From positions 2,656,001 to 2,720,000 of the forward strand of contig OZ244905.1 of assembly GCA_965221695.1 (NCBI GenBank): a DNA stretch of 64,000 nt. The letters are read 5' to 3'. The notes beneath the pieces were generated by a model. That model was given only the letters and a program-made list of their open reading frames with translations, ran no database searches and was not told the DNA's origin. Positions 57,095 to 63,358 of this stretch are shown in pieces. Position 1 is the first letter of the stretch. The number at the start of each line of letters is the position of its first letter. Source of the stretch: Gammaproteobacteria bacterium (GTDB lineage: Bacteria > Pseudomonadota > Gammaproteobacteria > Eutrophobiales > Eutrophobiaceae). Both the position numbers and the translations under genes were made by a program.

Positions 57095-57333
57095 TGCATG
57101 CCCGGGCAACAGCAGGAGTCCAGTCATATTACAGTGTAGTCCGGAGAGCTTACCCATATAGAACGTGGGGCAATCCTTTGTTTCACCGGTTGAAATAGTT
57201 GCCACAGACCAGGGCATTCTCCCGTACCACTCCCGCGAAAGCGGGAGTCCAGTAAAATACTATGTCGCCTGAAAGGCGACCCTTTGTTCCACCGGCCGGA
57301 AAAGCTGTATTCCCACCCAAGCGGGAATCCAGT
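57095..57333. repeat. REPIN-like repeat cluster (reverse orientation)
   Basis: TACCACTCCCGCGAAAGCGGGAGTCCAGT...GTCGCCTGAAAGGCGAC, plus degenerate copies. Confidence 0.78.
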
Positions 57334-58174: not shown

Positions 58175-58684
58175 ATGCCGATAGAAGCGCCATTCCGGGC
58201 AAACAGGCAACTGATCGTCCCCGAATGGATCGACTACAACGGCCACATGAACGTGACCTACTATGTCCTCGTGTTTGACCGCGCCACCGACGATTTTTTC
58301 GACTTCATGGGGTTGACCGCCGAATACAGGGCCGCCAGCAATCTCTCGGCCTTCACGGCGGAAATGCATGTGAATTATCTCCGTGAGGTGAAGGAAGGTG
58401 ACGAAGTATCCGTAACCACCCAATTGCTGGGTTACGATGCCAAACGCTTCCATTATTTTCACCACATGTACCACGCCGAACAAGGCTACCTGGCCGCCAC
58501 CAGTGAACTGCTGTGCCTGTTCATGGACATGAACCAGCGACGGGTAACGCAAATTCCACCCCCGATCCAGGACAGACTGGCCGAAATCAAGCAAAGCCAC
58601 GCCGCTTTGCCGTTGCCCGAACAGGTCGGCAGCGTGATGCGAGTGAAACCTGCCGCACCAGCCGATAACGCAGATAATCGATAA
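58175..58684 (+). CDS. Hot-dog fold acyl-CoA thioesterase family protein
   Basis: 'PEWIDYNGHMN..YY...FD.ATD', 'E.H.NYLRE', 'D.KR.H'. Confidence 0.88.
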   Translation: MPIEAPFRANRQLIVPEWIDYNGHMNVTYYVLVFDRATDDFFDFMGLTAEYRAASNLSAFTAEMHVNYLREVKEGDEVSVTTQLLGYDAKRFHYFHHMYHAEQGYLAATSELLCLFMDMNQRRVTQIPPPIQDRLAEIKQSHAALPLPEQVGSVMRVKPAAPADNADNR

Positions 58685-58695
58685 GAAACCTGTGA
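58607..58695 (+). repeat. Direct repeat A (3' end of the thioesterase gene), copy 1
   Basis: 89 bp with 4 mismatches to 60943-61031. Confidence 0.92.
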
Positions 58696-58696
58696 G

Positions 58697-58789
58697 CTAC
58701 CTTCAACAGAGGGTATGCACAAGGAATGCGCCATCAACTGTGAGCATATCCAGACGGTTTCCAAAGGTGGATTAAGCGGATGGTGAATT
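58697..58789 (+). repeat. Direct repeat B, copy 1
   Basis: About 93 bp, highly similar to 60716-60808. Confidence 0.9.
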
Positions 58790-58840
58790 CTGCATATATA
58801 CTGGATTTTTGCGACCTAAGCGCTTAGACTATGATTATAC

Positions 58841-58896
58841 CCCCTGCGGCTTCGACCGCAGGCCGCGGGGCCTCTACGGAGGCCCCTGCTTTTTTT
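58841..58896 (+). ncRNA. Putative short structured RNA/leader with intrinsic terminator upstream of the NYN nuclease
   Basis: Hairpin CCTGCGG-CTTCGA-CCGCAGG, then GGGGCCTC-TACG-GAGGCCCC plus T7, ending 8 nt before the ATG. Confidence 0.6.
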
Positions 58897-58904
58897 GGTG
58901 AGAA

Positions 58905-59528
58905 ATGCGCACATACATCTATGTCGATGGTTTTAACCTCTACTATGGCGCGCTGAAAGACACGGCCTGGAAGTGGCTGGATCTGACCGCTCTATTCGAG
59001 AAAGTCCTCCAACCCAAACACGACATCCTGGCCATAAAGTACTTCACGGCTCACGTTTCAAGCACGCCTGCGGACCCGTTGAAACCACAACGGCAAGAGG
59101 CCTATCTGCGCGCACTTCGGCATTTCCGACCTGAAGTCGACGTGTATTTCGGGCATTTTCTGAGTCATAAAGTCAGGGCGCCGCTTGCACATCCTGTGGG
59201 AAAACAGCGTTCTGCCAAAGTAATCCGAACCGAGGAGAAAGGTTCGGATGTTAACCTTGCCGTACACTTGCTAAATGATAGCTGGTTGAATGTCTATGAT
59301 TGTGCAGTTGTCGTTAGCAATGATAGCGATATCGCCGAGGCAATGCGCCTTGTGAGGGAGCATCAAGGCAAGAGGATTGGATTGGTGACACCGGGAACTG
59401 GCCGCCCGTCCAGCCAACTCATGTTACACGCGGATTTTGCGAGACACATCCGACCGAATGCTTTGAGACAATCACAACTTCCGGACCAAATTCCCAACAC
59501 CAACATCAGAAAGCCAGCGCGCTGGTAG
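58905..59528 (+). CDS. NYN (LabA/DUF88, PIN-like) nuclease
   Basis: 'YVDGFNLYY', 'YFTA', 'EEKGSDVNLA', 'VVSNDSD'; acidic catalytic residues intact. Confidence 0.9.
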   Translation: MRTYIYVDGFNLYYGALKDTAWKWLDLTALFEKVLQPKHDILAIKYFTAHVSSTPADPLKPQRQEAYLRALRHFRPEVDVYFGHFLSHKVRAPLAHPVGKQRSAKVIRTEEKGSDVNLAVHLLNDSWLNVYDCAVVVSNDSDIAEAMRLVREHQGKRIGLVTPGTGRPSSQLMLHADFARHIRPNALRQSQLPDQIPNTNIRKPARW

Positions 59529-59898
59529 GACTATGACATAAGATTCGAGGAACAACCGTTTCAATCAAGAAAATGTCCTCTAAAGGCCAGATTGTCATCC
59601 CTGAGCAAATACGCACGCAAATAGACCTAGAAGCGGGTTTCCAGTTACAGTACGTAGCCTCACCAATGCGCGTTTGCGGGAGATTCTATTACAATCACAG
59701 TATCAAAGGTTAAATCCTTAAAGCGGGATTCGCTTACGCCTCCAGATTCTAAGGTTTCCCAAAATTAAGGCTGGATATGGGTGCCCCAGGACGCTCGTGC
59801 TCAGGATACCATGTCATTGAGAAGCACATAACGCTGCAGGGATCGCGTCGAATGTGTATTCCCAAGGGTATTCGAAGGTGTGTCCTCTGATCACGGCA

Positions 59899-60354
59899 TC
59901 AGGTCAATTCTGCGTGGATACTACGCGCGTCCAGAAGTGGCATATCCAACACAGTTTGAACAAAGCCCGGGCCTTTCTCGTGCTGTTTAAGGTATCGGCG
60001 CAAAATGCCAAAGAATGGCGTCTCAAAGGTTTTCTCGACCGTAGTGATATACTCCCGCGCGTCAGGCTTTGCGCGGCTATCGCCCCTGAAGTTGCCAAAC
60101 AGCGCTGCGCTGAGGTTGGGATATGCTTTATTGAAATTTGTCACGGCGCCGGGAAATCCCCTGCCAAGGGAGAGTTTTGGTTTGTTTATCTGCGCCGCAT
60201 AGTTGTTGACTTGCTTTTCAACTGTATAGGGCGAAATCTTAACTTCGTCTGCCAGAGTGAGAATACGCTCAATTCTCGCTGCGTTGGTTGATTGCCGGTT
60301 GAGAATGGCATAAGCCCGTTTTGCCAATTCATGCGGATACAACAGGTTCGTCAA
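59899..60354 (-). pseudogene. Probable C-terminal fragment of a larger protein (possibly a regulator)
   Basis: 151-codon frame with a weak TTG start and protein-like composition; family uncertain. Confidence 0.4.
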
Positions 60355-60456: not shown

Positions 60457-60762
60457 TTGATAAGAGAAACAAAATGGCAATTACAGGAAGCCAAGGCGGA
60501 CCTGAGTGAGCTGGTAAAGTCCGCTCAGAATAACGGACCGCAACAAATCACTGTACACGGCAAGCCTGCCGCTGTTGTCCTTTCCTGTTACGACTATACC
60601 CGGCTTGCCAGGAGTAAGCCGTCATTCGTCGGTCTGATGCGGCAATCTCCGCTCATAGGCGTAGACCTGCAACTTGAGCGGGACCAATCGCTGGCACGCG
60701 AACAAACCCTGTGTACTATCTTCAACAGAGGGTATGCCGAAGGAATGCGCCATCAACTCTGA
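60457..60762 (+). CDS. Phd/YefM antitoxin (orphan; 3' end reads into repeat B')
   Basis: 'WQLQEAKA.LSELV..A...GPQ.IT.HGKPAAVVLS'; no toxin gene downstream. Confidence 0.82.
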   Translation: MIRETKWQLQEAKADLSELVKSAQNNGPQQITVHGKPAAVVLSCYDYTRLARSKPSFVGLMRQSPLIGVDLQLERDQSLAREQTLCTIFNRGYAEGMRHQL

Positions 60763-60808
60763 TCACATCCAGACGGTTTCCAAAGGTAGATTAATCGGAT
60801 GGTAAATT
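60716..60808 (+). repeat. Direct repeat B, copy 2
   Basis: Matches 58697-58789. Confidence 0.9.
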
Positions 60809-60819
60809 ATTATCACGCT

Positions 60820-60920
60820 ATACACCTGGAAGAAAAACACCGCAAAGGTTACGAATTACAGCCTGTGGGTAATAACGAGTTCGCTATGTGGGAAGCAGAA
60901 CAGGATTGGGGAGACAGTTT
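60820..60920 (+). pseudogene. C-terminal remnant of an RHH/CopG-type antitoxin
   Basis: 'LEEKHRKGYELQPV..NEF..WEAEQDWGD' resembles C-termini of MazF-associated RHH antitoxins; N-terminus missing. Confidence 0.5.
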
Positions 60921-60942
60921 AACAAGGGAAAGCCAAGCAGAG

Positions 60943-61031
60943 TTGCCGTTGCCCAAACAAGTCGGCAGCGTGATGCAAGTTAAACCTGCCGCACCAGCCG
61001 ATAACGCAGATAATCGATAAGAAACCTGTGA
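60943..61031 (+). repeat. Direct repeat A, copy 2
   Basis: Matches 58607-58695. Confidence 0.92.
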
Positions 61032-61664: not shown

Positions 61665-61961
61665 TCAACGGTTGATATCATGCCTGGCTTCAAACTCAGC
61701 TGTGAACTCATCAAGTGGCCGGCCTTGTTCAGACAGGGCATGTCTGATAATCCGCACGCTCTCGGCATAGTTTGCCAATACCGCTATTTTTTCGTAGGTT
61801 TCAGAATCCTGGACTACCACAGCAGCGTTGCCATTGACCGTTAGAAGCTCTGGACGTTTGCTTTTGTTCGGTCGTGTAATATGCGTCGCCGGTTTCCGGC
61901 TGAAGTCAGTGACCGATTGTTGTTCAAACGTGAGCGGAGATTTCGTGTAGGCTTCTGCCAC
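61665..61961 (-). pseudogene. Chimeric ORF: about 15 N-terminal codons of AbiD/AbiF (Abi_2) fused to a Phd-like antitoxin
   Basis: GTG start after GAGG; 'YTKSPLTFEQQ' is an Abi_2-type N-terminus, followed by 'SVTDFSRK...RPELLTVNG.A.VVVQD' (Phd-like). Confidence 0.6.
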
Positions 61962-61983
61962 TGGAGATCCTCGGTACGCAGGC

Positions 61984-62034
61984 AAAAAAAAGCCGCCAAG
62001 GTTGCGCATTGTTAAGAGGCGTGACGGCTATGTT
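61984..62034 (-). ncRNA. abiF-type RNA motif with terminator
   Basis: Minus strand: AGCCGTCA-CGCCTCTTAACAATGCGCAACCT-TGGCGGCT followed by a U tract, directly upstream of an Abi_2-like start. Confidence 0.65.
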
Positions 62035-63206: not shown

Positions 63207-63358
63207 GCACCCCGAACATTCCGGTACGTACAGGAATTCAGTGAAACAAAGGGTCGCCCTCCGGGCGACACAGAATTTGACTGGACTCCCGCTTTCGCGG
63301 GAGTGGTACGGGGGAATACCTTGTTCTGTGCCAACAGTTACATGTAATCGGGGTGTGC
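63207..63358. repeat. REPIN-like element
   Basis: GTCGCCCTCCGGGCGAC...ACTGGACTCCCGCTTTCGCGGGAGTGGTA, with a tail similar to 45975-46025. Confidence 0.8.

Follow-up and report, generated by a model that had tools for sequence, protein, structure and literature searches.

A compact unit consisting of a promoter, a predicted RNA of ~60 nt, and, 8 nt further on, the gene for a 207-aa NYN nuclease was delimited at positions 58802–59528 of the window, a stretch of 64,000 nucleotides of a Gammaproteobacteria bacterium (GenBank assembly GCA_965221695.1, contig OZ244905.1, positions 2,656,001 to 2,720,000). Based on comparison with homologous loci, this module is, on balance, probably a new NYN-based, type III-like toxin–antitoxin or abortive-infection family. 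The first-pass annotation of this DNA had marked the same span, which turned out to be exactly the extent conserved among homologs, and its coordinates for the palindrome, promoter boxes, hairpins, T run, ATG, and open-reading frame were all exact when the sequence was read again. The module contains the following features.

58802–58807, plus strand: −35-like hexamer TGGATT, aligning with a nearly invariant cTTGAy block in 74 homolog leaders
58816–58827, no strand assigned: perfect 12-bp palindrome CTAAGCGCTTAG in the promoter spacer
58825–58830, plus strand: −10 hexamer TAGACT; in the homolog alignment (A1), A34 is invariant and T33 is present in at least 90%
58837–58896, plus strand: predicted ~60-nt RNA, from its fold (z = −3.53), its score with covariance model R1 (78.1 bits), and covariation
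From 58837, plus strand: 5′ tail of the RNA ending in CCCC (ACCCC), ahead of hairpin 1
58843–58849 and 58856–58862, plus strand: hairpin 1, CCTGCGG paired with CCGCAGG
58867–58874 and 58879–58886, plus strand: hairpin 2, GGGGCCTC paired with GAGGCCCC, loop UACG; the whole hairpin spans 58865–58889
58890–58896, plus strand: U-run of seven T; the ATG follows 8 nt later, at 58905
58897–58904, plus strand: 8-nt linker with the Shine-Dalgarno-like GGTGAG, read from the sequence
58905–59528, plus strand: NYN nuclease gene, 207 aa (Pfam PF01936; PADLOC HEC-09, PDLC04163)

The promoter was located by homology. In the homolog leaders, the −35 and −10 blocks are conserved at a fixed distance from the RNA, and the family consensus drawn from 74 of them reads cTTGAy, 17 nt, TAgatT, ending ~7 nt before the RNA; in the window, TGGATT and the −10 hexamer are also separated by 17 nt. 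A consensus promoter scan did not list this promoter because the window −35 matches the sigma-70 consensus at only three of six positions. The earlier proposal of TAGACT and TATGAT (58830–58835) as promoter boxes is supported in that homology predicts a promoter here, formed by TGGATT and TAGACT, but the two proposed hexamers abut and therefore cannot be a −35/−10 pair. The palindrome that had been pointed out is indeed perfect over 12 bp, but neither it nor the TATGAT box is conserved in homologs. Mean pairwise identity in the promoter spacer is 41% among homologs and, since the spacer columns are unconserved, the palindrome is probably not a conserved operator. The RNA start at 58837 was placed from the position of the −10 hexamer. 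The 8-nt linker, which is too short to hold a separate promoter ahead of NYN, varies among homologs (44% identity) with a GG-rich stretch usually present.

Folding of positions 58836–58910 produced both hairpins at −36.3 kcal/mol (z = −3.53), an energy equalled by none of 200 shuffled sequences, and the terminator scan ranked hairpin 2, with eight pairs of which seven are G–C, first among all candidates between 57000 and 64000. The structure of two hairpins and a terminator described in the first-pass annotation was confirmed by these two results. No competing antiterminator structure was present in the minimum-energy or centroid fold of the leader. The window RNA is a single unit, as no tandem repeat was found in 58400–59700, and a scan of the 3.54-Mb genome with R1 returned the window copy as the sole strong match, indicating that the element is not a dispersed repeat. 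A search of Rfam 15 at permissive thresholds gave no match at the window leader or in seven homolog loci, and no tRNA- or tmRNA-like gene was found at the RNA; this RNA family is missing from Rfam 15. Several other ideas about the RNA were tried and set aside. The loop of hairpin 1 bears only a loose resemblance to a T-loop, mimicry of a host RNA was dropped as the 3.54-Mb genome holds no second similar sequence, and a 41-aa open-reading frame at 58831–58956, considered as a leader peptide, has no conserved start in homologs. Antisense pairing between the RNA and the start of NYN was also rejected, with matches of only 4–5 nt found by eye and these not conserved in the E. coli version.

The protein encoded downstream is a member of NYN (PF01936) and HEC-09, matching the Pfam NYN profile at 38 bits against a gathering cut-off of 24.2 and the PADLOC HEC-09 profile (PDLC04163) at E 1.8e-44, with residues 2–207 aligned to profile positions 3–202 of 203. 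PHROG 7929, a family of function unknown, also matched, and NCBIfam gave no match to the protein. Residues D8, E111, D115, D140, and D142 do not vary across the 31 homologs compared, the active site is intact, and the earlier description of an intact NYN nuclease is well founded given the Pfam score above cut-off and these invariant acidic active-site residues. The AlphaFold model of the protein (pLDDT 93.5) found its best PDB folds in 2qip (LabA-like; E 1e-7) and the NYN domain of MARF1, a likeness also seen in sequence-level matches. HEC-09 has been described as an Hma-embedded candidate defence gene, a single gene with three conserved aspartates and a MARF1-like NYN fold (Payne et al., bioRxiv 10.1101/2024.01.29.577857). 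In the accessible portion of that preprint, HEC-09 protected E. coli against none of the phages tested, no toxicity is reported, and the words “non-coding” and “ncRNA” are absent; the negative phage screen is an observation that speaks against an antitoxin reading of the module. The bacterial LabA-like NYN group COG1432 is listed as “function unknown” in the accessible text of a review of the PIN superfamily (PMC5499597), from which “type III” is absent. In a literature search with subscription journals and supplements outside its scope, no work was found that joins NYN, LabA, or HEC-09 with type III systems, an RNA antitoxin, or an RNA motif.

The module is situated downstream of a conserved dapB–thioesterase pair, at the point where similarity among 23/23 genomes of the genus ends. 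Its surroundings contain Phd/YefM and DUF433/DUF5615 genes, a MazE fragment, and duplicated toxin remnants, and the Pfam scan of these neighbours upheld the view that the region is a toxin–antitoxin hotspot. The two closest remnants are listed here.

58686–58789, plus strand: remnant of a toxin C-terminus, which we take to be MazF-like from its C-terminal family motif; direct repeat D2, 88% identical, with the second copy at 60705–60808
59573–59713, plus strand: fragment of a MazE/AbrB-type antitoxin (Pfam MazE_antitoxin, E 0.0029, below cut-off)

The MazF-like remnant is outside the conserved module, and the MazE-like fragment is not conserved after NYN elsewhere, indicating that it belongs to another, decayed module. 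An abiF RNA (Rfam RF03085) on the minus strand at 61991–62028, 3 kb away, is part of a separate decayed module. The presence and distance of this RNA had been noted before and were recovered with Rfam, but the accompanying statement that the abiF module has the same layout is unsupported because no Abi_2 gene follows the abiF RNA. Among the ten neighbouring open-reading frames scanned in the window, there was no helicase or methylase.

To place the module among its relatives, one genome per species was scanned and the best 80 of 91 protein relatives, with 48–100% identity, were used as anchors. These 80 loci come from MAGs labelled Gamma- and Alphaproteobacteria, Longimicrobiales, Binatia, Entotheonella, Acidobacteriota, Thermodesulfobacteriota, Dehalococcoidia, Spirochaetia, Rhodothermales, and others, and the RNA element is visible in the 120 nt upstream of NYN in nearly all of them. 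The covariance model R1, built from the 74 distinct leaders of alignment A1, matched 80/80 of the NYN-anchored loci (the best 80 of the 91 relatives) across many phyla. The match is directly before the start codon in 78 of the 80, is clipped by the end of the contig in one, and lies 2.3 kb upstream of an interrupted NYN gene in the remaining one. In A1, 96.5% of cells in the 74 sequences are paired and none of 500 shuffles reached the covariation score. Five of the eight pairs of helix 1 show compensatory double changes, and one pair of helix 2 is found as G–C (34), G–U (27), and A–U (10). A further alignment, A4, made up of 34 distinct prophage, plasmid, and distant-genome matches, has double changes in 14 of 18 pairs and a covariation score of 0.671 versus at most 0.151 with partners slid, a comparison that leans towards the structure because A4 was fitted to the model. 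G–U pairs are tolerated on one strand only, that of the RNA itself, indicating that the element acts as RNA. A search for a conserved structured element upstream of homologs, suggested in the first-pass annotation, was therefore positive, with 80/80 close loci carrying it and covariation present.

The RNA is also more conserved than the gene. In 38 loci, mean pairwise identity is 0.896 for the RNA versus 0.713 for the coding sequence, within which codon positions 1 and 2 reach 0.828 and position 3 reaches 0.485; in the same loci, the promoter spacer is at 0.41 and the linker at 0.44. An RNA more constrained than the protein is not explained by a mere terminator, and the RNA sequence is under purifying selection. 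As kin loci are not independent, counts such as these overstate the number of events. The conserved stretch runs from the −35 to the NYN stop codon. Flanking repeats and integration signatures were considered and discarded, as conservation is limited to this span, and no integrase or transposase is conserved near the homolog loci. No neighbouring open-reading frame is conserved either, the largest non-NYN cluster being present in only 9 of 79 loci. The absence of an adjacent protein antitoxin gene, remarked on earlier, extends to the homologs, where none is conserved and conservation stops at the stop codon. Variant forms of the RNA persist down to ~30% protein identity and, as far as these comparisons reach, the association of RNA and NYN is obligate and ancient.

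The family is large and patchily distributed. At least about 7900 protein relatives were present among the matches listed, 458 plasmid records carry the NYN family, and it is also found in prophages. It occurs in 24/401 sampled genomes of the phylum and, patchily, in 11/22 genomes of the genus at any level. Homologs with 30–55% identity, from genus relatives, plasmids, and prophages, have the C-run, the first hairpin, and the terminator hairpin before the start, and the terminators of these distant leaders end in UGCUUU-like tails just ahead of the start. A terminator-like hairpin was present within 100 nt upstream in 26/39 diverse homolog loci and in 42/60 distinct upstream regions from viral contigs (74 of 80 loci examined, the other six having their match too near the contig end; kin not independent). 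The corresponding value for long open-reading frames of this genome was 38/1500, a rough control that used crude ORF starts. A set of homologs termed class B (L142–L147, L013, L019), which are the best-scoring members with the HEC-09 HMM, has a different two-hairpin upstream element without a terminator. Class B leaders, degenerate U-runs, and the small number of independent lineages with arrays or uncoupled RNAs, described below, speak against an antitoxin reading, as does the single RNA unit found in the window and in most homologs.

Relatives in which the RNA is multiplied, moved, or left behind are the most informative with respect to its role. ColE1-type plasmids of 4.6 kb from E. coli, Salmonella, and Klebsiella have NYN 9 nt behind a terminator, which is itself preceded by four or five tandem hairpin-1 units with a period of 29–33 nt. 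The stem of the plasmid unit is almost that of the window and is preceded by the same C-run. These array plasmids account for 17 PLSDB records and were found in 10 of 5426 complete E. coli genomes, always plasmid-borne. In its sequence, the plasmid array follows the plan of a classical type III locus, with copy number varying as well. Two full units stand in tandem in one viral contig (L184), where the U-run is missing from the first. Arrays were present in 3/44 diverse loci, all of one plasmid lineage, and additionally in this one viral contig. Four mycobacterial prophage loci, which belong to one lineage, lack the RNA upstream of NYN; the RNA (48.8 bits, all pairs standard) is instead on the opposite strand, ending at the NYN stop codon and having its own promoter, TTGACA-18-TAGCCT. 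Another viral contig (L207) carries the RNA in divergent orientation to NYN, at a modest score of 24.9 bits. These uncoupled arrangements represent two lineages only, and an RNA outside the NYN transcript cannot attenuate NYN.

A further asymmetry was seen in the way the two parts decay. No NYN without the RNA was found among the 80 close protein-anchored loci (best 80 of 91). A search anchored on the RNA in 61 relatives gave eight strong matches, of which four were beside a full NYN gene and one was at a contig end, while in the other three NYN was deleted or truncated (G003, the second copy in G008, and G019). In 150 other genomes of the phylum, there were three strong RNA matches (G132, G136, G164), all without an intact NYN, and a profile search of these genomes found no NYN or a weak partial match only. 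One locus (L099) has an extra, first RNA copy beside 27 codons of NYN, and in 3/62 loci the RNA was kept beside an NYN gene with an early stop. A toxin that never occurs without the RNA and an RNA that often occurs without the toxin are what a toxin–antidote pair predicts. Orphan RNAs of this kind could also be neutral remnants still in use as terminators, a point to be held against the antitoxin reading.

Together, the plasmid arrays, the tandem units of L184, the uncoupled RNAs, and the asymmetry in decay argue, at the level of comparative sequence evidence, for an RNA antitoxin acting in trans rather than for a plain attenuator. The analogy with type III systems drawn in the first-pass annotation gains support from the plasmid arrays, the RNAs uncoupled from NYN, and the orphan RNAs that remain after NYN deletion. 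The main alternative is a purely cis-acting leader without a trans antitoxin, in which the hairpins and terminator throttle NYN as a constitutive attenuator or form an operator that NYN binds or cuts in negative feedback. Many ribonucleases autoregulate through their own leaders, and the arrangement in most loci suits this explanation, with the RNA on the same strand and directly upstream in 78 of the 80 close loci and a terminator immediately ahead of the start codon in the majority of diverse homologs. The U-run is degenerate in about 10 of the 74 leaders, which means that not every locus would make more RNA than mRNA, and degenerate leaders often have a GTG start (6/6 in the L069 group), as if total expression were selected. 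However, the convergent RNA of the mycobacterial prophages and the divergent RNA of L207 cannot attenuate NYN, tandem arrays of variable copy number are unnecessary for attenuation, and promoter-bearing copies of the RNA outlast NYN deletion. The hairpin sequence is moreover conserved beyond what termination needs and, although a terminator is present, no competing antiterminator fold was seen. A leader acting only in cis is thus an unlikely explanation of the module.

The second alternative, an NYN ribonucleoprotein that needs the RNA as cofactor or scaffold, for activation or substrate selection and not for inhibition, would account for the obligate association and the strong conservation of the RNA sequence, and sequence data alone cannot separate an activator from an inhibitor. 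An antidote is the better fit, however, to a design in which RNA exceeds protein, to the tandem arrays, and to RNAs that often outlive NYN, and the RNA has no variable segment usable as a guide, making a cofactor role improbable. Finally, although hairpin 2 with its U-run is a textbook intrinsic terminator and orphan copies of the RNA sit after unrelated genes, a reading in which the element stands before NYN by chance, whether as the upstream gene's ordinary terminator, as a dispersed repeat, or as a DNA-level site for recombination or a transposon end, is strongly disfavoured and very improbable, since the upstream genes vary between loci while promoter, RNA, and NYN travel together, G–U pairs occur on one strand only, and no conserved integrase or transposase is nearby.

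Under the preferred reading, an RNA antitoxin acting on NYN, the nearest comparison is with the type III systems ToxIN, CptIN, and TenpIN, the details of ToxIN being general background. The module is predicted to share with them the order of promoter, non-coding RNA, Rho-independent terminator, and an endoribonuclease gene expressed by read-through, and it shares the lack of a protein antitoxin and the occurrence on plasmids, in prophages, and in defence contexts. The terminator characteristic of type III loci is present in the window (8-bp stem with seven G–C pairs, and T7 ending 8 nt before the ATG) and is kept in most homologs. The repeat array of type III antitoxins, as outlined in published abstracts, has its counterpart in the 29–33-nt array of the E. 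coli plasmid relatives and not in the window. The window itself differs in having no tandem direct-repeat array, such arrays being confined to relatives (four or five units on the plasmids, two in L184), and its RNA forms a simple stem-loop behind a conserved 5′ C-run. The NYN protein is also not ToxN, CptN, or TenpN, as Pfam finds only NYN, PADLOC finds only HEC-09, and the fold is that of LabA/MARF1; a toxin fold unlike those of the three known families is a further observation that weighs against the antitoxin reading. VapC and the LabA/MARF1 NYN proteins share a PIN-like, metal-dependent nuclease fold with an acidic active site, but VapC is neutralised by a protein antitoxin, unlike what is proposed for the NYN module.

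A structured hairpin RNA in place of a repeat array, located upstream of a toxic RNA-targeting protein, is found in AbiF. [quoted passage not shown] By analogy, and to the extent that this source describes it, AbiF is the nearest design precedent for an RNA antitoxin of one or two hairpins. The two differ in that RF03085, whose only match is the one at 61991–62028, has none at 58802–58904, and in the toxin, which is Abi_2/HEPN-like there and NYN here. The HEC-09 gene of the preprint, as described in its accessible portion, belongs to the same protein family, with a full-length HMM match and a MARF1-like NYN fold, but it is presented there as a single gene, whereas the window copy is found among toxin–antitoxin remnants, with no helicase or methylase among the ten neighbouring open-reading frames scanned.

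In the mechanism that we propose, one promoter would yield much RNA and, through terminator read-through, little NYN mRNA; the location of the terminator between the RNA and the ATG means that RNA output is expected to exceed that of NYN mRNA. The abundant RNA would bind the scarce NYN protein and keep it inactive. The recognised unit would be the ACCCC tail together with hairpin 1, and hairpin 2 would act as the terminator and probably also form part of the mature RNA. When the supply of RNA fails, as might follow loss of the element, a shut-off of transcription, or phage infection, NYN would be freed and could then cut cellular or phage RNA, with toxicity as the presumed outcome.

A broader claim, which we put forward more tentatively than that for the module itself, is that the ACCCC-hairpin RNA and NYN may form a large, ancient, and so far unrecognised type III-like family built on a PIN-like fold, with thousands of members that have spread horizontally through more than ten phyla and are found on enterobacterial plasmids and in mycobacterial prophages, and in which free-standing RNAs may be anti-addiction or immunity elements against incoming NYN modules. 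To our knowledge, very few toxin folds are represented among RNA-antitoxin systems. If the antitoxin reading is correct, the NYN/PIN-like fold would widen this class and bring to it a very large membership, and the RNA would define a family missing from Rfam 15. The “single-gene” candidate HEC-09 would become a two-component system, providing a testable reason for its negative phage screen, and the natural E. coli version on 4.6-kb plasmids would be a tractable model. The pattern of a toxin never alone and an RNA often alone would also be a clean comparative signature that could find other RNA-antitoxin systems.

The whole 6-kb stretch that carries the RNA-NYN module (promoter, predicted ~60-nt two-hairpin RNA, terminator and NYN nuclease gene), from dapB to the UDG-like gene, is flanked by the arms of a 102-nt inverted repeat, each arm containing a terminator-like hairpin, and a weak, sub-threshold match to the Rfam family FtrB was found at 63229-63329. 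The repeats and the RNA motif of this stretch are as follows:

57191-57292 and 63241-63342, 102-nt inverted repeat, arms 85% complementary
58593-58695, 3′ end of the thioesterase gene, duplicated at 60929-61031 (92% match)
58686-58789, C-terminal remnant of a putative toxin, duplicated at 60705-60808 (88% match)
61991-62028, minus strand, abiF RNA motif (Rfam RF03085), score 40.2 bits, cut-off 37

The thioesterase 3′ end and the toxin remnant (58593-58789) recur at 60705-61031 in swapped order, suggesting that this hotspot has undergone repeated insertion and rearrangement. The abiF RNA motif, which normally lies upstream of an Abi_2 gene, is genuine and is followed by no such gene; it overlaps the 5′ end of an ORF of 114 aa (61665-62009, minus strand), whose match to Phd/YefM is weak (E 5.4e-5, below the cut-off). 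A 151-aa ORF (59899-60354, minus strand) gave no match in Pfam, PADLOC, or NCBIfam.

Among relatives of the NYN protein, the plasmid homologs H5 and H25 are annotated as 6-hydroxy-3-succinoylpyridine hydroxylase (HspA), probably a propagated misannotation, since a PIN review notes that a different domain of the Pseudomonas protein may be responsible for that activity (PMC5499597). The upstream element also varies. In the best scorers against the HMM of HEC-09, the PADLOC candidate defence family of the window's protein, another conserved two-hairpin element, starting GAGACGCCCC and without a U-run, was present ~70-110 nt upstream of NYN (loci L142-L147, L013, and L019), and in L142 it is immediately preceded by a 17-nt repeat in 3.2 copies. 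Plasmid homologs from Klebsiella, Salmonella, E. coli, and Thiothrix (L133, L135, L136, L138, L158, and L159) share a longer first hairpin with the conserved loop motif GCGAUUAAGUU. This hairpin occurs in two copies on L135 and L136, both 5-kb plasmids, and may represent a second RNA class.

Orphan copies of the RNA were found at two loci:

L266, 1142-1562, minus strand, orphan RNA copy with a small ORF
L265, 1152-1560, minus strand, orphan RNA copy with a small ORF

These ORFs are unrelated and start 2-13 nt after the RNA; of their products, one is an HTH protein of the XRE type (HTH_3, E 3.3e-12), and no Pfam family matched the second.

In loci L029-L108 (the best 80 of 91 relatives, with one genome scanned per species), the RNA-NYN module was found at 58-84% protein identity in MAGs labelled as at least 10 phyla. 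Across these MAGs the RNA is ~90% identical, suggesting that the module has recently been transferred horizontally and widely within one kind of community.
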